Of a DNA stretch of 64,000 nucleotides, positions 47,095 to 55,556 are shown piece by piece. How positions within the stretch are numbered: position 1 is the stretch's first letter; each line of letters begins with the position of its first letter. A program made the position numbers and the translations under genes. Origin of the DNA: Candidatus Sumerlaeia bacterium (GTDB lineage Bacteria; Sumerlaeota; Sumerlaeia; SLMS01); NCBI GenBank assembly GCA_038208905.1, contig JBBQYG010000001.1:7789-71788 (forward strand), read 5' to 3'. The notes under the pieces are model-generated. The model was not told the DNA's origin and ran no database searches. It saw only the letters and a program-made list of their open reading frames with translations.

Positions 47095-48774
47095 TCAGCG
47101 GAGGTGGAAGCCCGTGCGGTGTGGGACGAATGGTTCCGCGGGGTGGGCCTTGGTCTGAACGCGGAGGCACCGCAGGAAATTCAGCAAGTCCTCCTGCTCG
47201 CTGGCGGAGAGCGCCTTGAAGATTGCCACGGAGCTGTTGGCCTCGCTTCCCTCGCCCGCGTGCATCACCACCGCCTCGCGCAGCGTGGTCGCGCGCCCAT
47301 CGTGCAGCCACGGCCCCGTGTCGGCCACGCCCCACAGGGGCCGCGTCACGAAGAGATCGGGCTCCACCGTGAGCGAGCGCATCTCTGTCCGCTGGGGAAC
47401 GATGTCAGCCAGTTCGGCGCCCATGCGGTGACGGCGGAGGTCGCTGAAGAGCGGGACGTCGATGGTGCCATCGGCATTGTGGGGCAGGCGGGGCAGCGCC
47501 TCGTCGGGCATGTCCTCGCTGTTGAGGTCGAATGTATACCCCGTGGGCCGCTCGTCGGCGCCCTTCCGCAGGGCATGGGTGCGCTGAACCACGGGGGCGA
47601 GGTTCTCCGAGAGGAACTCCCCGGGCACCATCGGCGGCATCTCGCCCTCGACCTGCTTGAAGACGGAAACGAACTCGGCGGATTTGCGGAAGGGCTGTTC
47701 GCGGATCGCGAGCTCGCGCGGGTCCAGAATCGTGACGCGCGGGTCGCGAATGCGCAGGCTGGGCACATGGCATACAGTGCAGCCAACTGTGTCCATCAAC
47801 GCGCGGCCACGCGCCGTGGAGGCACTATCCAACTGGCGTTCGTCCACCGCGGGCGGGCGCATCGCGGCGAGGAAGATCGCGATGGCCGAAACCTCGCCCT
47901 CCAGCATTTCGTGATAGGCGCCCTGGGCGTCGTCGTCGATGAAGCCGCGCTCCAGCAGTTCGCGCGGCTGGATGGCGAAATGGAAGTTCACCGCACCGGC
48001 GATGAAGTTGCGCAGCGACGAGGCGATGCCCTTGAACTGAAAGGGCCGCACGACCATGTCCAGGCTGACGCCCTGGACTTCCGACCGGTCGAGCGCCCCC
48101 ACCGAACTCGCCGTGATGTATCCGAAGCCGACTCCCTTGGAGACGAGGGCCTTGCGCGACGGCACACCCGTCGCCACCGCCTCTCGCAATGCCTCGTCGG
48201 CGATATCGAGCAGGTCCGAAGTCATTTCGTCGGAGAGGCGCTGTATATACCCTAGCCCGAAATTGTGGGGCGGGTTGCGGACGATGCCCCGCGTCATGTC
48301 GTCGGGTTCCTCGAAGATGAACACGTTGGCGGAAAACCCCGCGCCGGAGCCAATGCTCCCCGATTCGCGCGGCATCGAGAGGTCGCCGTGCCTTGTGGAA
48401 CCCATGGCGCTGTGGCACTCGAAGCAGCCCTGTGCGTCGAGGCCGTTGAACCGCAGGAACGGCGAAATTGTCCCCCCCGCAAGCGAGAGCTTCCTTCTGC
48501 GCGGACCCGTCGGGCCTTCCCCGAATCCGTCGTCGGTTGTGTAGCGGTTCGTGTACAGATGCATCCCGCGATAGAACAGCGTCGGCAGGTCCACCGTTCC
48601 CGCGTTGATGTCGTCCTGGGCCGTCAGGACGCCGGGCTTCAGCACGCCATCGTGTGGATGGGGCAGCGTCGGCACCGGGTCGTCGGGCCGCGTGCCGCCG
48701 TCATAGGCGGCACCCGCCGGGGAACCGGCGAGGAGAAGGCCAAGGGCGATGCAGGAAAGGGATCGAAAGGCCAT
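47095..48774 (-). CDS. Di-haem c-type cytochrome oxidoreductase (DUF1111-like putative peroxidase/thiol oxidoreductase)
   Basis: Signal peptide (MAFRSLSCIALGLLLAGSPAGAA). Two CxxCH haem-binding motifs (CFECHS, CTVCHV) about 210 aa apart. Roughly 560 aa. Confidence 0.6.
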   Translation of the reverse strand: MAFRSLSCIALGLLLAGSPAGAAYDGGTRPDDPVPTLPHPHDGVLKPGVLTAQDDINAGTVDLPTLFYRGMHLYTNRYTTDDGFGEGPTGPRRRKLSLAGGTISPFLRFNGLDAQGCFECHSAMGSTRHGDLSMPRESGSIGSGAGFSANVFIFEEPDDMTRGIVRNPPHNFGLGYIQRLSDEMTSDLLDIADEALREAVATGVPSRKALVSKGVGFGYITASSVGALDRSEVQGVSLDMVVRPFQFKGIASSLRNFIAGAVNFHFAIQPRELLERGFIDDDAQGAYHEMLEGEVSAIAIFLAAMRPPAVDERQLDSASTARGRALMDTVGCTVCHVPSLRIRDPRVTILDPRELAIREQPFRKSAEFVSVFKQVEGEMPPMVPGEFLSENLAPVVQRTHALRKGADERPTGYTFDLNSEDMPDEALPRLPHNADGTIDVPLFSDLRRHRMGAELADIVPQRTEMRSLTVEPDLFVTRPLWGVADTGPWLHDGRATTLREAVVMHAGEGSEANSSVAIFKALSASEQEDLLNFLRCLRVQTKAHPAEPFVPHRTGFHLR

Positions 48775-48914
48775 GGTACGGGGTCGCAAGGATGTATCGG
48801 ATGCTGGTCGAAAACAAACGAAGTCTAGGCGGCCCGCATTGTCACGGGCAATCTGGATTGAGGCCATGTTGGGCGTCGGAAATCCGGGATTGCTCGGGAG
48901 GGGCGATCAAATGG

Positions 48915-51116
48915 ATGCTGGCCTCCGCCATGTCAGCCGCCGCCATCCCAGCCCCGACGACCGTCCCGCGCAAGAGCCCGTGGCTGGTGGGCCCCATGGT
49001 GGACATCCTGATCGGGTGTGGCGCGTGGACGATTCCCCTGCTGGTGGCGACGCGCCTGGCGGAGACCTCTCAGGTCATCGCGGTTTCCTTTTTCTTCTAC
49101 TTCCTCACGATCTTCTGCAACAATCCACACTATATGGCGACGATCTATCGCGCCTATGGCACGCGGGCGGATTTCAGCAAGTACCGGTTCTTCACGGTTT
49201 ACCTGACGGCGCTTCTGATCCTGACGGCGGTGGGGGCCCACTTTGCGCCGGTGGTGTTGCCGATCCTGTTTACGGTCTATCTGACGTGGAGCCCCTGGCA
49301 CTACACCGGCCAGAACTTCGGCATTGCGATGATGTTTGCGCGGCGGGCGGGGGTACAGCCGACGCGGACGCAACGCAACCTCCTCTACGCCGCCTTTGGA
49401 GCGTCCTACCTCGTCTGGTTCCTGTCTATACATTCCACCTTCGCGGCCAGCCCCTACATCCTGACGCTCGGCATTCCGTCCGCCGTGGCGGAGCCGTTGC
49501 GCTGGGTCCTCTTCGCCGTGTTCGTCACGACGGCGGGGCTCGCCATCGCGGGGATGTCGCGCGTGGTGGGAATGCGGGCGCTCATGCCGGCGGCGATCCT
49601 GATCTCCACCCAGTTCCTGTGGTTCGTGCTGCCGGTTTTCCTGAGCACCCTCGCCGCCGACACCGCCGCGCCGCTCTACTTCAGCACCGGGGCGCTGGCG
49701 TTCATGCACTGCGCCCAGTACCTGTGGATCACCAGCTACTACGCCCGGCGCGAATCCGACACCGGCGCGCGGCCCTCGCGGTGGAGGCCGGTTGCCTACT
49801 ATGGCGGCATGGTGGTGGGCGGCATTGCGCTCTTTGTGCCGGGGCCGTGGCTGGTCAGCCGCGTGTTCCGCTTCAACCTGGTGGAGAGCTACCTGATCTT
49901 CAGCTCGCTGGTGAACATCCACCACTTCCTGCTGGACGGCGCGATTTGGAAACTGAGGGACGGGCGCATTGCCGCGCTTCTTCTCGGCACGTCGGGTCGC
50001 GCTTCGGCGGATGGCTCCGCGCGCCGCGGCCTGCTCGTCCGCGGGGCGGGATGGATCATGGCGCCCCGGGCCCGATTTGCGCGGTACGGGCTGGCGGCGG
50101 CGATCATCGCCATCGGACTGCTGGATCAGTGGCAATACTTCCTGACGATGGACGGCGCCCCCACCGAGCGCGCGGCCCTGGCGGAGCGCCTGAACCCCTC
50201 AGACTCCCGCGCCCTGATGCGGCAGGCGCGCCAAAGCCTCGACGCCGGGCGCCCCGCGGAGGCCCTCGACCTCGTCACGCGCGTCTCCGCCCTCGGCGGG
50301 CTCAACGCCGACGCGCTCCGGCTGCGCGGCAATATCCTCGCCGGCGCGGGTCAGGACGACGAGGCATGGCTCACCTACCGCACGCTGGAGGCCGTCGTCC
50401 GCCCCGACATTCCCACGCTGGTCAACGTCGGCGTCCTCGCGGCCAGGCGCGGCGAGAAGACCACCGCCATCGCGAAGTTCCGCGCCGCCCTCTCCGCAGA
50501 TCCCGTGCGCACCGATGTGATGCTGAACCTGGCCGAGGCCCTGTATGAGCGCGGCGACTATCGCGAGGCCATCGCGCAGTACGACGCCTACATCGTGGCC
50601 GCGGGCGCGAAAGCCAAGACGCCCGGCGAGTTGCGCGGCGTCCTTCGCGCGACGCTCCGCATGGCCGCCGCACAGGCCGGCGCGGGCGAGGACGAGGCCG
50701 CCTTCGAGACCGCCCGCTCCGCCGCCCAGCTCGCCGCCGGAGCCTCGCTCCCCGACCTCGAGAGCCAGGCCCTCGAGCGCATGAGCGGCATCCTCAGCGA
50801 CGGCGGCAACGACCGCGCCGCTCTGCCGCTCCTCCAGCAGGCCGTGGGTCGCGCGGGAGAGGCCCGCGATCCCCTGCTGGCCGCCATTCAGTTCTACAAC
50901 CTGGGCACCATGCTGACGCGCATCGAAGCGCGCGAAGAGGAGGCCTGGGCCTGCCTCGTCGAGTCGCGCCGCCTCTTCTCCGAAAGCCCCGGAGCCCAGG
51001 CCCCCGCGACCCTCCCCGGCCTGATCGCCGGACTGGAAGCCACCCACCCCGTGCTCGCCACGCTCCCCGACCCCGACCGCCTCGCGCGCCTCCGCCGCGC
51101 CCTCACACAGCCATAG
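48915..51116 (+). CDS. Polytopic membrane protein with a C-terminal TPR-repeat domain
   Basis: ATG at 48915. About 11 TM segments in the first ~430 aa. The C-terminal ~300 aa are Ala/Leu/Arg-rich with TPR-like periodicity (ALDLVTRVSALGG..., EAIAQYDAYIVAAG...). Confidence 0.55.
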   Translation: MLASAMSAAAIPAPTTVPRKSPWLVGPMVDILIGCGAWTIPLLVATRLAETSQVIAVSFFFYFLTIFCNNPHYMATIYRAYGTRADFSKYRFFTVYLTALLILTAVGAHFAPVVLPILFTVYLTWSPWHYTGQNFGIAMMFARRAGVQPTRTQRNLLYAAFGASYLVWFLSIHSTFAASPYILTLGIPSAVAEPLRWVLFAVFVTTAGLAIAGMSRVVGMRALMPAAILISTQFLWFVLPVFLSTLAADTAAPLYFSTGALAFMHCAQYLWITSYYARRESDTGARPSRWRPVAYYGGMVVGGIALFVPGPWLVSRVFRFNLVESYLIFSSLVNIHHFLLDGAIWKLRDGRIAALLLGTSGRASADGSARRGLLVRGAGWIMAPRARFARYGLAAAIIAIGLLDQWQYFLTMDGAPTERAALAERLNPSDSRALMRQARQSLDAGRPAEALDLVTRVSALGGLNADALRLRGNILAGAGQDDEAWLTYRTLEAVVRPDIPTLVNVGVLAARRGEKTTAIAKFRAALSADPVRTDVMLNLAEALYERGDYREAIAQYDAYIVAAGAKAKTPGELRGVLRATLRMAAAQAGAGEDEAAFETARSAAQLAAGASLPDLESQALERMSGILSDGGNDRAALPLLQQAVGRAGEARDPLLAAIQFYNLGTMLTRIEAREEEAWACLVESRRLFSESPGAQAPATLPGLIAGLEATHPVLATLPDPDRLARLRRALTQP

Positions 51117-51178
51117 GCTTGACCGGCGACGCCCCGCCGCCGATACTCTCCCCCATCACCCCGGGGAGCGCGCCGACC

Positions 51179-51526
51179 ATGGACCACGACCACAAGAATC
51201 ACCCCCACCAGCACGGCCCAGGCTGTGGACACCCCGCCGTCGTCCACGGCGACCACGTGGACTACCTCCACAACGGCCACCTGCACCACGTGGACGGCAC
51301 CAAGGTGGAGGAACACGCCCTGGACATCACCCCCCGCAACCCCTCCGACTGCGAAGCCACCAGCCTCCACACCCCGCACCACACCCACGGCCCCACCTGC
51401 GGCCACGAAGCCGTCCCCCACGGCGACCACACCGACTACGTCGTCAACGGACGCCTCCACCACCCCCACGACGGACACTGCGACGATCATGGTCCGGTGG
51501 TGGTGTTGAAGAATATGGCGCCGTGA
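51179..51526 (+). CDS. Small His/Cys-rich putative metal-binding protein with an internal tandem duplication
   Basis: Two ~28-aa repeats: HGPGCGHPAVVHGDHVDYLHNGHLHHVDG and HGPTCGHEAVPHGDHTDYVVNGRLHHPHDG, plus a C-terminal HCDDHGP. An alternative upstream start lies at 51119. Confidence 0.5.
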   Translation: MDHDHKNHPHQHGPGCGHPAVVHGDHVDYLHNGHLHHVDGTKVEEHALDITPRNPSDCEATSLHTPHHTHGPTCGHEAVPHGDHTDYVVNGRLHHPHDGHCDDHGPVVVLKNMAP

Positions 51527-51578: not shown

Positions 51579-52745
51579 TCAGGGCTCGGTATCCTGGGCT
51601 GCTTTGTAGGCCTGCCGCATGTGGTGGGGCTCCTCGGGGATCGTGTATTTCAGGCTACCCTCCGCAATCATGGGGCTCAATTGATTCTCCACCAAGTATG
51701 TCTGATTCCGCCCAAGAATTCGTGCGATTTCCTCGGCCCTGAGTGGCCTCCATTCACATAGCTCGATGATGGCGGCCCGAAGCTTTTCTTTGCGGGCGCT
51801 CTTGCCCAACCCTTCCACTTTCAGTAGAATCGCCGGGGGGATAGCCCTTAGATTTTTTGGCAAGCTGCGCAGCCTATCGCCTATTGGGCCCCACTCCTCC
51901 ATCAGCGAGCCCTCGTCCTCCACTTCGAGCCCCTCGACCTCACTAGGGTTCGTGCCGACCTCACGAGGTTTCTGCCCGACCTCACTAGGTTTTGCGGGGA
52001 CCTCCTCAGATCTTGCGGCAGCGACCTGCATAGGTTTCGAAGACTCTTCGCCGCGCTCCTCCTGCAGGTAGGCAGATGGCACGTAGTAGGTGGCTGATCC
52101 TTTCCCTTTCTGGTCGAGAAGGCCTTCATCGCGAAGCCGACGCAGGGTTCTGCTGGCAGCGAGAGTCTCGGCTCCAGAAAGATTTCGAAGCGCCCGATTG
52201 CTGATTGCTCCCAGTTCACGGGCGTAGACGAGCGCCTGGCATTCATCTGCAGTTAGGTAGTGTTGCCGGAAACGGGCCAGCCACTCCACGTCCTCGCCGC
52301 CAAGCAGATGGTGGAAGAGGAGGATTAGACTGAAGGCATTGCCTGCTCGGTTGGATTCGAACGTCGGTGGCGCCAATCCGGCGTTCTGCATTTGCTCCCT
52401 CATAATGGAGATACCCCGCCCCTTGGTCTCGGCAAAGCGGGTTTCGTGAAGTACCTCGGCAATCCATGGATTTCTTGACACCGAGACGGGATCACCGAGG
52501 AGTTCCTCGGCCTTGAGCGAGTAGCCGGGATTCCTGAACTCCAGCCGGTTCCGATCCGATTGTACGGATGCTTCTGGCGCCACTTCAACGACGCCCACCG
52601 GCCGTGCAATGCCGGCGCGGCCGATGCTTGCCTGATAGCGGCAGGACCGATGAATCTCTGGATCAAGTCGTAGGCTTGATCTACGAGCCCGTTGTTGTCG
52701 TTCCAGCCGGCGTAGGCGAGGATGAACTGTCTGCGGCCGCCCCCC
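51579..52745 (-). pseudogene. Remnant of an AlbA_2/HATPase_c_4 ('RecG C-terminal-like') putative transcriptional-regulator gene. N-terminally truncated and frameshifted.
   Basis: Translation ...VQSDRNRLEFRNPGYSL...SRNPWIAEVLHETRFAETKGRGISIMREQMQNAGLAPPTFE matches HATPase_c_4. The C-terminal winged-HTH is intact. Upstream protein-like sequence (FILAYAGWNDNNGLVDQAYDLIQRFIG) sits in a different frame and is cut off by the neighbouring gene end at 52746. GC is about 55% against a roughly 68% background. A 13-nt unit cctagtgaggtcg is repeated 3 times. Confidence 0.5.
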
Positions 52746-55556
52746 CTACCTCACCCGCCATTCCTCCCCCGCGTCCTCCCCGCCCAGCGCGCCGGTTACC
52801 CTTAGCGCCAGCAGGCTTGTCGGGTGGGCGCCGTATTGGCCGGAGTAGCCGATGAGGCGGAATTCGACGGGTTGGGTGAGGGCTCGGAAGCGGGGCTCCT
52901 GGGGGAAGGCGATGCGGAGCGTTTGGTCGTCCTCCGATTGGGAGCGCGGCGTGGTGAGGAGCGCGGCGGGCTCGGCGAAGCCGTCGATGCTGCTGAACAC
53001 GGCGTAGCGTCGCGGGGCGTGCCAGCTCTGGCGGCGGATGGTGAGCGTGAGGTCGTGGCCCGCGAGCGTGAGCGGCTGCTGCTCAGGCGGGGTGATGGTG
53101 AAAGTGAGGTGCTGGCCCTGTTGAATCGCATAGGCGAGGGTGGCGGCGGCTTCCTCCGCGGGGAGGTTGACGGACCAGCGCAGTGCGTCGTCTCCGGCCG
53201 TGCGGACGATGCCCGGTCCGGCGTCGATGCCCGACCATTCGAGCCCGCTGGCGAGCACGTGGTGGCTGGTCCACGGGAGGCTCTGGCCTGGATTGGAGCC
53301 GAGGAAGCTGGCCTCCACGATGACGTTGGGCCCGCCCACGGTGTGCAGGCTAAAGGTGCGCCAAGTGGCGTCGCCGTTGGCGTCAACGACCCGCGTATAG
53401 ACAAAGGAGAGCCCCGGCTGCGTGGCCGTGCCGGCGATCGTGATTCTGGGCGGCTGGGCGGTGACGATCTCGGCGGAGAGGTCGCCGCGCAGGCGCTCGG
53501 CGATGATCTCAACCGAGAGCGGGCCATCGCCGCCGGTGGTGGCAATCGTCGCGGTGTAGGGCTCGCCATACTTCGCAACGGGAAGGAGGGGCGGCGTTTG
53601 GAAGGACGGGACGGCCCCCTCTGGTTCGTCCACGTGGTTGGTGCGCGGGCTTTCGGCGATCCAATCGAGGAGGAATTGATACTTGTGGGCGTCGGCGTTG
53701 GGCTGGGTCAGGTGCTCCAAGTGGCCCCATTGCCCATACTTGCCGAAGGGGGATGAATCGGTGAACATCACATGCGTGCGCAGGCCCTTTGACCGTGCCA
53801 TGTTCAGGTGGGCGCGATAGACATCGCGGATGCGGGGGTCGCGGTTCATCATGGAGAGGAAGGTGGTGATGCCATCGTCGCGGGCGTCTCCGCCGTCATA
53901 GCCGTCGGTGTAAAGCGACGGCCCGCCCTCGTAGGCGATGAGCGGCTTGGGAGCCGGGAACGCCGTCCGCGCGAGGTCCACGGCCCAGCGGTCAAAGCCA
54001 CCGGCAAACGCCGTTGCGTCGGGTCCGGCGCCCTCGCGCGCATCGCCAGAGAGCATGCGCTCCATCCACTCGTCATAGGCCTCCGCGATGTGGCGGTGGT
54101 TGCTGGCGCTTCCCCAATAGGGATCGTCGGCGGGGACGGATACGGGGCGCATATTCCCGCCGCCGGGGTTGAACGTCTGGGTGGTCAGGAACCACGGATC
54201 GTCGGTGCCGGCCTGCTCCTGCGCGCGCTGAAAAACCCAGTCCTGAATGCCATTGCCAAAGTAGGTGGTCACGGCGACGGCGTCGGGCTCCACGGGGGGA
54301 TTCAGCGTCGCGCCATAGGTTCTCATCTCGGCGAGGAACTCGGTCGAGTAGCTCTCGACCCCGGTGAAGATCGCCGCCACGCGGACGATTCGCTGGTCTC
54401 CGCCAAAGACCTCCTGAAACTGGCGCCACACGTCGCAGAAGCGCCGCGCGTTGAACTGAGGCTTGCCGATGCCGAGCTCGGTGGCGCGCTGCCGGGCCCA
54501 GTCCCCTTGGGCAAAGGCGTTCCCGTTGCTCCATATCTCATTGGAGTATTCGAGGTAGATCCTCCGCCCCGGCTCGAGCGGCGGATGGACGGGATTTTCC
54601 TGTGGCGATTCATAGGGGGCGACGCCATCGCCGCCGTGGAGCATCAGCAGCGCCAGGTTGCGTATATACGTTTCGTTGGCGAGATGGGGGATGGTGATCC
54701 ACAGGTCGAGTTCCGCCGCGTTGGCCAGCGCGATCACGTGCTCCCACGCGATGCCGGTCTGGCGAATGCCGGCGTGCCCGCCGCCGGGGCTGCGACGATG
54801 TTGCGGCCCCGTTTGGAACACGGCGGAGGGAAGGCGCCGATCGCCCCAGTCCTGCTCGGGATTGGCGTTGGTCTCCGTCAGGTTCATCGTGCGCAGGAAG
54901 CCCCAAGGGGCCTCGCGCAGGCGGGCGAGAAACGCGGGGTGGAAGAGCTGGCCCTCCAGCGACGCGCCCGTGGGATTCGCCGGATCGGGAAGCCACACGT
55001 CCAGATCGGTGAGGGGGTTGGCGGGGTCGAGGGCGTGGACCTCCACCCAGGTGAGCTGACCGCCCGGGGCGAACTGATACGCGCGCCGCCCGTCCACGAG
55101 CGACCCCGTGGCCGCGCCGGAGGAGTCGCCCGCCAGAAAGCCCCCGCCGTTGAGCCGCAGGTCGGCGTTGCCGCGCCACTCCAGCACCACGCGCCCGCGG
55201 ACGAGTTCCGCGCGGTCGGGCTGACCCGTGGCGGCCACGGCGCCGGGGACGTTGGTGGCAAACATCAGGGCGCGATACCGGCGACCCTCTGGCAGGGAAA
55301 TCGGCAACCCGCGCGCCGAAAAGTTTGGCTCGTTCCAGTGGAGGATCTCGCTCCCCCACGGGCCGCCGGGGGTGTACTCCATCCACACCCCGGCAGAGTG
55401 CATCCCGTTTGCGAAGTAGGGCGTGTCCCAATAGCTGACGCCGCCCGAGTGGTACCCCACTGCGGGGAGCGTTGCGGGATCGGCGGCGCCGTGGCCGCGC
55501 GTCACGAGGAGGACCAGCAGCGCGGCGAGGGCGAGGAGGCGACACAGCATGGTCAA
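52746..55556 (-). CDS. Large secreted protein of unknown function (possible carbohydrate-active enzyme; Ig-like He_PIG-type domain near the C-terminus)
   Basis: 936 aa. Signal peptide (MTMLCRLLALAALLVLLV). No catalytic motif recognised. Ig-like stretch PLLPVAKYGEPYTATIATTGGDGPLSVEIIAE. Translationally coupled to the upstream hydrolase gene. Confidence 0.5.
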   Translation of the reverse strand: MTMLCRLLALAALLVLLVTRGHGAADPATLPAVGYHSGGVSYWDTPYFANGMHSAGVWMEYTPGGPWGSEILHWNEPNFSARGLPISLPEGRRYRALMFATNVPGAVAATGQPDRAELVRGRVVLEWRGNADLRLNGGGFLAGDSSGAATGSLVDGRRAYQFAPGGQLTWVEVHALDPANPLTDLDVWLPDPANPTGASLEGQLFHPAFLARLREAPWGFLRTMNLTETNANPEQDWGDRRLPSAVFQTGPQHRRSPGGGHAGIRQTGIAWEHVIALANAAELDLWITIPHLANETYIRNLALLMLHGGDGVAPYESPQENPVHPPLEPGRRIYLEYSNEIWSNGNAFAQGDWARQRATELGIGKPQFNARRFCDVWRQFQEVFGGDQRIVRVAAIFTGVESYSTEFLAEMRTYGATLNPPVEPDAVAVTTYFGNGIQDWVFQRAQEQAGTDDPWFLTTQTFNPGGGNMRPVSVPADDPYWGSASNHRHIAEAYDEWMERMLSGDAREGAGPDATAFAGGFDRWAVDLARTAFPAPKPLIAYEGGPSLYTDGYDGGDARDDGITTFLSMMNRDPRIRDVYRAHLNMARSKGLRTHVMFTDSSPFGKYGQWGHLEHLTQPNADAHKYQFLLDWIAESPRTNHVDEPEGAVPSFQTPPLLPVAKYGEPYTATIATTGGDGPLSVEIIAERLRGDLSAEIVTAQPPRITIAGTATQPGLSFVYTRVVDANGDATWRTFSLHTVGGPNVIVEASFLGSNPGQSLPWTSHHVLASGLEWSGIDAGPGIVRTAGDDALRWSVNLPAEEAAATLAYAIQQGQHLTFTITPPEQQPLTLAGHDLTLTIRRQSWHAPRRYAVFSSIDGFAEPAALLTTPRSQSEDDQTLRIAFPQEPRFRALTQPVEFRLIGYSGQYGAHPTSLLALRVTGALGGEDAGEEWRVR

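Follow-up and report, generated by a model that had tools for sequence, protein, structure and literature searches.

A duplicated histidine-rich domain linked to metallosensors: a putative cytoplasmic metal-binding protein of a Candidatus Sumerlaeia bacterium and its undescribed family

The open reading frame (ORF) located at positions 51179-51526 of a 64,000-nucleotide (nt) stretch of DNA from Candidatus Sumerlaeia bacterium (contig JBBQYG010000001.1, the whole stretch being referred to as the window) is a real, constrained gene coding for a 115-residue protein rich in histidine (His). The gene product very likely belongs to an undescribed family of metal-binding domains that works in zinc homeostasis, because its potential ligands are conserved, its relatives are encoded next to metal sensors or fused to them, and the genes that accompany them are zinc-specific. 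We regard the domain as a probable new type of zinc-binding module of the cytoplasm. As for its task, we tentatively favour a folded, His-based buffer or reservoir of cytoplasmic zinc, a reading to which we grant slightly less than an even chance. The protein can thus be presented as a metallosensor-linked cytoplasmic protein built on a new domain, for which we infer metal binding.

Duplicated modules and conserved ligands

The protein (MDHDHKNHPHQHGPGCGHPAVVHGDHVDYLHNGHLHHVDGTKVEEHALDITPRNPSDCEATSLHTPHHTHGPTCGHEAVPHGDHTDYVVNGRLHHPHDGHCDDHGPVVVLKNMAP) contains 25 His, i.e. 22% of its residues against 1.4-2.9% in four long neighbouring ORFs, together with four cysteines (Cys; C16, C58, C74 and C101) and 12 aspartates (Asp), in agreement with the initial annotation of the ORF as a small His/Cys-rich protein. 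It is acidic, with a net charge of -11 computed on Asp, glutamate (Glu), lysine and arginine. Two modules (residues 8-37 and 66-95) are followed by a C-terminal HCDDHG, which contains the HCDDH already pointed out in that annotation. The modules are identical at 20 of 30 residues (67%) and at 65 of 90 nucleotides, whereas the best self-match in 300 shuffles of the protein averaged 8 positions and reached 12 at most. The modules are thus a true duplication, though not the perfect one first described. The one Cys and 7-8 His ascribed to each repeat of about 28 residues also have to be adjusted, as the His counts are 10 and 8 per 30-residue module, or 8 and 6 when counted from HGP to LHH. The coding sequence and the parts of its product are the following:

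51179..51526, + strand: coding sequence of the 115-residue His-rich protein, from ATG 51179 to the stop codon at 51524-51526 (included); the start agrees with the N-termini of homologues
51200..51289, + strand: module 1, residues 8-37, HPHQHGPGCGHPAVVHGDHVDYLHNGHLHH; 20/30 identical to module 2
51338..51352, + strand: linker motif NPxxC, residues 54-58, with the conserved C58; from the alignment of homologues
51374..51463, + strand: module 2, residues 66-95, PHHTHGPTCGHEAVPHGDHTDYVVNGRLHH; the best conserved part in bacteria and eukaryotes
51467..51493, + strand: C-terminal ligand cluster H97-x2-H100-C101-D102-D103-H104-G105; from the alignment

Conservation was assessed on an alignment of 118 sequences. 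Of its columns, 22 are invariant and conservation is 90% or higher in another 28; nearly all hold His, Cys, Asp or glycine. The invariant positions include H10, H12, C16, H18, H26 and H46 in the first half and H68, H70, C74, H76, H81, H84, H97, H100 and H104 in the second, that is 15 His/Cys, most of which survive in eukaryotic copies as well. In the linker, P55 is invariant and N54 and C58 reach at least 90%; in the C-terminal cluster, D102 and G105 are invariant along with H97, H100 and H104, and C101 is found in at least 90% of the sequences. The consensus reads HxHGPxCGH-x4-H-x2-H-x-DYLHDGHLHH ... EEH ... NPxxC in its first part and HxHGPxCGHEAVPHGDHxDYLVDGRLHHPHGxHCDDHG in its second. The window protein aligns with the family over its full length; all invariant columns are present in it, as are both modules and the HCDxHG tail. 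Positions strictly kept across kingdoms are H10, H12, C16, H18, H46 and C58 in the first half, and H68, H70, C74, G75, H76, H81, H84, D86, H97, H100, C101, D102, H104 and G105 in the second. Those from H68 to D86 are the best-kept positions of module 2 in bacteria and eukaryotes, and the C-terminal cluster is retained in the amoebozoan fusion proteins described below. Conservation of His 31, 34, 36, 37, 94 and 95 is largely limited to the bacterial copies. In the homologue P0028, the linker is interrupted just past NPxxC by 22 inserted residues rich in Cys (CGCAPGCACESCNTACRCSCC), which resemble a segment of metallothionein.

An AlphaFold2 model built with the same alignment is all-beta, with a mean predicted local distance difference test score (pLDDT) of 85.3 and a predicted template modelling score (pTM) of 0.77. 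Four strands make up each modelled unit, at residues 20-23, 26-31, 34-39 and 42-46 in unit 1 and at residues 77-81, 84-89, 92-97 and 100-106 in unit 2. According to this model, the protein is folded and does not behave as a low-complexity tail. None of its 15-residue windows is hydrophobic (maximum Kyte-Doolittle value 0.09), so that the product is expected to be soluble and cytoplasmic, with neither a membrane segment nor a signal peptide, in line with what had been noticed at first. A secreted or periplasmic location was ruled out on the same absence of a hydrophobic segment.

A widespread family absent from annotation libraries

A search of 5.8 billion proteins returned 2250 homologous clusters at 90% identity. 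The best 120 of these 2250 are 100-151 residues long and 54-69% identical to the window protein, with the exception of one near-identical metagenome copy (95%), and all of them are unnamed or labelled 'hypothetical'. They originate from Verrucomicrobiota, Planctomycetota, Alpha-, Beta- and Gammaproteobacteria, Thermoleophilia and others; among those with a named source are Shimwellia, Salmonella, Francisella, Rhodomicrobium, Haloferula, Verrucomicrobiales, Thermoleophilia, Halioglobus and Neorhodopirellula. When 1.84 billion representatives at 50% identity were searched with a profile, 1223 matched at E up to 1e-3. In the species genomes of GTDB, scanned at one genome per species, a relative is encoded at 545 confirmed loci at least, in Planctomycetota, Alpha-, Beta- and Gammaproteobacteria, Verrucomicrobiota, Myxococcota, Acidobacteriota, Cyanobacteria and relatives, and Vulcanimicrobiota. 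Hundreds of genomes thus keep the ORF, and the His/Cys positions are conserved in the 118-sequence alignment, so that neither of the two findings named at first as refuting the initial annotation, loss of these positions in homologues or of the ORF in relatives, was made. The complete genomes of E. coli contained no match. Some copies are carried by plasmids and conjugative elements, as is usual for accessory metal genes, and the Salmonella copy is located among conjugation genes. A tblastn search of plasmids, weakened by low-complexity masking, gave 7 records at 64% coverage, with two informative contexts.

The suspicion that the family is not well described proved right, as it has no counterpart in Pfam, NCBIfam or the PDB. 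The Pfam scan of the protein assigned no family, its only match at E up to 1 being EutQ over 18 residues at 14.3 bits against a cut-off of 21, and the NCBIfam scan gave nothing at E up to 1. Both libraries leave the domain uncovered in the fusion proteins too. The sequence search of the PDB gave chance matches only, and no relative was found there by fold either. Searching the literature by topic and by six sequence motifs brought up no account of the family, which is mentioned neither in the paper on COG0523 (PMC2770081) nor in that on the Francisella Zur regulon. Among known families, the cupin superfamily was discarded, the EutQ match that would be its sole basis being below threshold. The bacterial metallothioneins (SmtA/BmtA) were set aside in view of the missing Pfam match and of a composition of 4 Cys and 25 His per 115 residues, and Hpn was rejected since no homology was found. 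As judged from its sequence, the sole family of the protein is its own, so far undescribed. UniRef labels several members (P0120, P0350 and P0368) 'Threonine dehydratase', a name to which their sequence gives no support and which looks like a propagated annotation error.

Association with zinc sensors

The genomic context was sampled at 84 loci, comprising 80 genome loci, 3 contig look-ups and the window. The ORFs found up to 4 kb away were grouped into clusters and then counted by iterated profile searches, and representatives were checked against Pfam and NCBIfam. In 41 of the 84 loci, a gene of the ArsR/SmtB family is located directly upstream of the His-rich gene on the same strand, overlapping it or at most 100 nt away. 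The motif DxHx10Hx2(H/E), which is the alpha5 motif of canonical Zn(II) sensors (Chem Rev 2024 review, PMC11672702), is present in 40 of these 41 ArsRs, 27 of which also possess a CVxEL-type alpha3 Cys. A representative partner clears the NCBIfam cut-off for metalloregulators. The same pair of arsR and His-rich genes was annotated by the Prokaryotic Genome Annotation Pipeline (PGAP) on a conjugative plasmid of Pantoea ananatis.

In the model that we prefer, the product is soluble and cytoplasmic, and a His-rich, all-beta module that would bind metal is present in it twice, in tandem. Each chain would bind several Zn(II) through about 20 conserved His, 4 Cys and a few Asp/Glu, and would serve as a cytoplasmic zinc reservoir, metallothionein-like in function and built on His and a defined fold. 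In the arsR-X operon (X standing for the His-rich gene), which represents about half of the loci, the apo-repressor would occupy the DNA and Zn(II) would free it; upon a rise in zinc, the His-rich protein would be made and would take up the surplus. Bound zinc would be handed back in scarcity, as the frequent neighbours of the ZigA-type COG0523, DUF1826, ZIP, ZnuABC and Fur/Zur-like kinds suggest. Several observations lead us to favour this reading. The arrangement found most often follows the logic of ArsR-family operons that pair a sensor with an effector, here a soluble, ligand-dense protein; bacterial copies retain His beyond the cross-kingdom core; P0028 acquired its metallothionein-like insertion; and a store that is filled in plenty and drawn down in scarcity would account for an excess sensor and zinc-supply genes being found side by side.

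Fusions and a possible regulatory role

In six loci (L011, L012, L014, L018, L024 and L080), arsR and the His-rich gene form one uninterrupted ORF, and P0123 is an additional ArsR fusion of the same kind. In these fusions the alpha5 helix, where the sensing site is located, is immediately followed by the His-rich domain. Protein P0170 is an ABC-3 permease (AztB/ZnuB-like) with a C-terminal copy of the domain, an arrangement suggesting that the domain could act at the cytoplasmic face of a zinc importer. Finally, at least nine proteins (P0147, P0152, P0162, P0174, P0221, P0223, P0243, P0256 and P0168) with three to four C2H2 zinc fingers, often preceded by a LisH-like N-terminus, end in a complete two-module domain. 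Their named sources in the Amoebozoa are Physarum polycephalum, Nematostelium gracile and Cavostelium apophysatum; another eukaryotic fusion, P0254, comes from Fabomonas tropica. Identity between the Physarum domain and the listed bacterial stand-alone proteins is 54-63% in nearly all cases. The C2H2 fusion proteins may be metal-responsive transcription factors.

The occurrence of the domain in three partner classes, its position right after the sensing helix in the ArsR fusions and its very high conservation across phyla and even kingdoms, as in Physarum, speak for an accessory or regulatory domain of sensors. Reversible zinc binding would then alter the activity of the fused or adjacent partner, signalling taking precedence over storage. 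Candidate partners are ArsR, with the domain tuning its set-point or acting as co- or anti-repressor, the ZnuB-type importer, by trans-inhibition, and the amoebozoan C2H2 factors. We consider such a role unlikely. With a complete alpha5 site of their own (40/41), the partner ArsRs can do without another sensor. The majority of the members, the window copy among them, stand alone, many of them with no regulator nearby, and the additional His of the bacterial proteins (H31, H34, H36, H37, H94 and H95) suggest an added binding capacity.

Zinc-supply genes, other metals and loci without metal genes

Beyond arsR, COG0523 GTPases are encoded at 13 of the 84 loci, one of them scoring 654 bits against the ZigA equivalog cut-off of 600, Fur-family regulators at nine, DUF1826 and MerC-like proteins at seven each, and ZIP and NicO/RcnA-like proteins at six each. 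When the nearest non-ArsR neighbour on each side is considered, an unbiased Pfam census finds only ZIP, FUR, DUF1826, TonB-dependent receptors, cobW and ZnuA to recur. ZIP is divergent from arsR-X-fur in six planctomycete loci (L030, L032, L044, L064, L075 and L083). The co-directional cluster arsR-X-cobW-DUF1826-zigA is found in L042, L051 and L054 (Reyranella, Rhodospirillales), and X-DUF1826-DUF1826 in two sulfur-oxidising symbionts, followed by COG0523 (L039) or a NicO-like gene (L033). In Paraburkholderia sprentiae, the gene faces znuABC, a gene for a GTP-binding protein and zigA. Neighbours and fusion partners alike link the family to metal homeostasis, and to zinc in particular. They support the initial annotation, which had proposed a compact metal-binding unit and, as its possible function, a cytoplasmic chaperone or store.

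Potential operators were looked for in the same loci. In the region between ZIP and arsR of the six planctomycete loci (about 5400-5560 in L030), TTGCA-N6-TGCAA overlaps the -10 element of the arsR promoter (CTTGAC...TATACT) and TGCAA-N5-TTGCA(TAT) is located on the side of the ZIP start; in view of these shared repeats, one regulator may control both genes. A common palindrome was sought upstream of all arsR genes, where only lineage-specific repeats were found, and the scan upstream of ArsR-less loci gave no recognisable common AT-rich palindrome or Zur box. The palindrome TATTCATATTGAATA is located about 62 nt upstream of the gene in L033 and L039, perfect in L039 and with one mismatch in L033, and is a possible candidate operator.

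A zinc metallochaperone would fit part of this picture. It would carry zinc from the inner face of ZIP or ZnuBC to COG0523 GTPases or client enzymes and would be made mainly in scarcity, within a Zur-type regulon. The co-directional clusters of X with DUF1826 and COG0523 (L033, L039) or with arsR, cobW, DUF1826 and zigA (L042, L051, L054) agree with it, as do ZnuABC and ZigA beside the Paraburkholderia gene, the divergent ZIP of the planctomycete loci, the permease fusion P0170 and the repeats suggesting one common regulator for ZIP and arsR. However, a 25-His protein made in zinc starvation would compete for the scarce zinc, and the commonest partner by far is an alpha5 ArsR, derepressed at high metal. 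COG0523 is present in 13/84 loci only, and the scan of ArsR-less loci identified no Zur box. A chaperone made in scarcity is therefore decidedly unlikely in our view.

The same kind of protein could also serve nickel and cobalt, or several divalent metals, in analogy with the His-rich nickel stores and chaperones. A ligand set dominated by His favours not only Zn(II) but also Ni(II) and Co(II), six loci contain NicO/RcnA-like genes, and several partner ArsRs have an extra His after the alpha5 motif, a feature of the Ni/Co sensors NmtR and KmtR. Of these two, KmtR is mentioned in PMC11672702. Yet the neighbours that can be named are zinc-specific (the ZigA equivalog, ZupT-like ZIP, ZnuA and AztB/ZnuB-like proteins), and genes for urease, hydrogenase and cobalamin do not recur in the neighbour census. 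This makes nickel or cobalt very improbable as the metal served.

At 36 of the 84 loci, one of which is the window, no such zinc gene lies within 4 kb, the Francisella copy sits after a SpoU methylase gene, and the eukaryotic copies are parts of transcription factors. These observations would suit a zinc-stabilised structural domain working outside metal homeostasis, e.g. in nucleic-acid or protein binding, for which every conserved His/Cys would be structural and the zinc neighbours incidental. This seems hardly credible to us, as an adjacency of 49% to one sensor class, six in-frame fusions and recurring zinc genes cannot be incidental.

The zinc reservoir weighed

Several points count against a zinc reservoir. 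The 36 loci with no zinc gene nearby are among them, and the 64-kb window contains none of the zinc genes and no ArsR homologue. No exporter recurs in the nearest-neighbour Pfam census. Zinc scarcity is what classically induces genes for COG0523, ZIP and DUF1826, whereas an operon under an alpha5 ArsR is expected to be on in excess, and L042, L051 and L054 combine both types in one co-directional cluster; the presence of zigA inside ArsR-headed clusters would be unexpected for an excess sensor. An identity of 54-69% across phyla exceeds what a simple ion sponge would need, which hints at a precise structure or a conserved partner, and the fusions to ArsR, C2H2 factors and a permease agree with a domain for sensing or regulation no less than with a store. 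The roughly 18 cross-kingdom ligands could all be structural, leaving little exchangeable capacity. Some partner ArsRs end in ...HAxExH, which together with the NicO-like genes of six loci makes nickel or cobalt possible.

The boldest version of the reservoir goes further. An ancient zinc domain of new fold would be the missing His-based store of bacteria, controlled by SmtB-type repressors and drawn upon by COG0523 proteins, and would also have been recruited as a sensing module by ArsR repressors, ZnuB-type importers and amoebozoan C2H2 factors. Taken as one joint claim, it lies on the unlikely side.

To our knowledge, bacterial cytoplasmic zinc buffering and storage are poorly understood, metallothioneins occur in few lineages, and we know of no general storage protein. 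With hundreds of species, at least eight phyla, plasmids and Amoebozoa, the family offers a cloneable candidate for the missing zinc-storage component, for which a confident structural model and clear mutational targets are available. A regulatory role, if true, would make it a new metal-sensing domain common to bacterial and eukaryotic transcription factors. In either case, a family model is merited and would give consistent annotation to thousands of 'hypothetical proteins' and to the few wrong 'threonine dehydratases'.

Start, expression signals and surroundings of the window copy

The upstream ORF bears tetratricopeptide (TPR) repeats in the Pfam scan, codes for a TPR membrane protein and has its stop at 51116. 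The 2-nt gap that was first reported between both genes holds for the longest-ORF start, TTG 51119. Homologues of many phyla, however, begin at a Met aligned with 51179, and the true distance from the TPR gene to the ATG is therefore 62 nt. The long form is called only in a 95%-identical metagenome contig; the 135-residue version starting at TTG was rejected, its extension being conserved nowhere else. These slips of the initial annotation, the 'perfect' repeat and the '2-nt gap', leave its interpretation unaffected. The GC content at third codon positions (GC3) is 88% in the His-rich gene, against 67% GC for the gene as a whole. Two signals precede the ATG:

51119..51147, + strand: promoter-like, sigma-70-like TTGACC-17-GATACT; putative, from a consensus scan
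51163..51168, + strand: Shine-Dalgarno-like GGGGAG, 10 nt before the ATG; seen directly in the sequence

The promoter scan of the 62-nt gap found one site against 0.1 expected in shuffles, and the rejected TTG 51119 itself is part of its -35 hexamer. The site is identical in the syntenic metagenome contig L090, an identity that is uninformative because L090 is 99% identical across the whole stretch. On the 3' side, a hairpin is no better than those of shuffles as a terminator (z -0.56). The window copy differs from the arsR(alpha5)-X arrangement, its upstream gene being that of the TPR membrane protein, and L090 shows the same non-metal neighbours. It is a stand-alone orphan with a promoter-like site of its own.

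Other genes around it were recorded as well. The convergent downstream gene (51579-52598, - strand) matches only HATPase_c_4 at its extreme N-terminus, with weak helix-turn-helix-type matches, and could represent a member of the AlbA_2/HATPase_c_4 regulator group that has been shortened at the N-terminus; L090 contains it with the same length. The 936-residue ORF at 52746-55556 (- strand) has a signal-peptide-like N-terminus, and its 934-residue counterpart in L090 has no Pfam family on record. The 590-residue ORF at 47095-48867 (- strand), with an N-terminal hydrophobic segment and two CxxCH motifs (CFECH and CTVCH), probably encodes a secreted oxidoreductase of the di-haem cytochrome c type.

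Comparison with known systems

The His-rich protein shares a high His content, a cytoplasmic location and a proposed role in storage or as a chaperone with Hpn, Hpn-like and the His tails of HypB, UreE, SlyD and COG0523 proteins. About 40% of COG0523 proteins carry His stretches, which were read as a sign of chaperone function (PMC2770081). In contrast with the His-rich nickel proteins, which are of low complexity and poorly conserved, its ligands are conserved across phyla, it is predicted to be folded and its context is that of zinc.

The six planctomycete loci resemble the mycobacterial smtB-zur operon, in that an alpha5 ArsR gene and a Fur-family gene are located on one strand within one cluster. 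They differ from it by the position of the His-rich gene between both regulators and by the divergent ZIP upstream. The smtB-zur arrangement was described in Mycobacterium and is regarded as confined to a few actinobacteria (PMC7174638). CopY-CopZ and similar operons of a sensor and a chaperone likewise combine the gene of a repressor with that of a small soluble protein that binds metal, and this small protein could load or tune the sensor. Metal, fold and family are however different from those of CopY-CopZ, and metal transfer is only conjectured for the His-rich protein.

The closest analogue in logic is the cyanobacterial SmtB-SmtA pair (BmtA/SmtA), in which a small cytoplasmic ligand-dense protein is encoded beside an alpha5 zinc sensor of the SmtB type. 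SmtA/BmtA proteins form a Cys-dominated Zn4 cluster with about 9 Cys and 2 His in about 55 residues. The proteins are not homologous, the present one having 4 Cys and 25 His against the 9 Cys and 2 His of SmtA, and a repeated beta fold is predicted for it in place of the zinc-finger-like cluster fold of SmtA. Unlike the divergent smtA, the His-rich gene is located downstream in the same operon or fused to that of the sensor, and it is often accompanied by zinc-uptake genes. Overall, the sequence of events expected for the arsR-X operons is nevertheless that of SmtB-SmtA: zinc would free the repressor, the binding protein would be made and zinc would be taken up.

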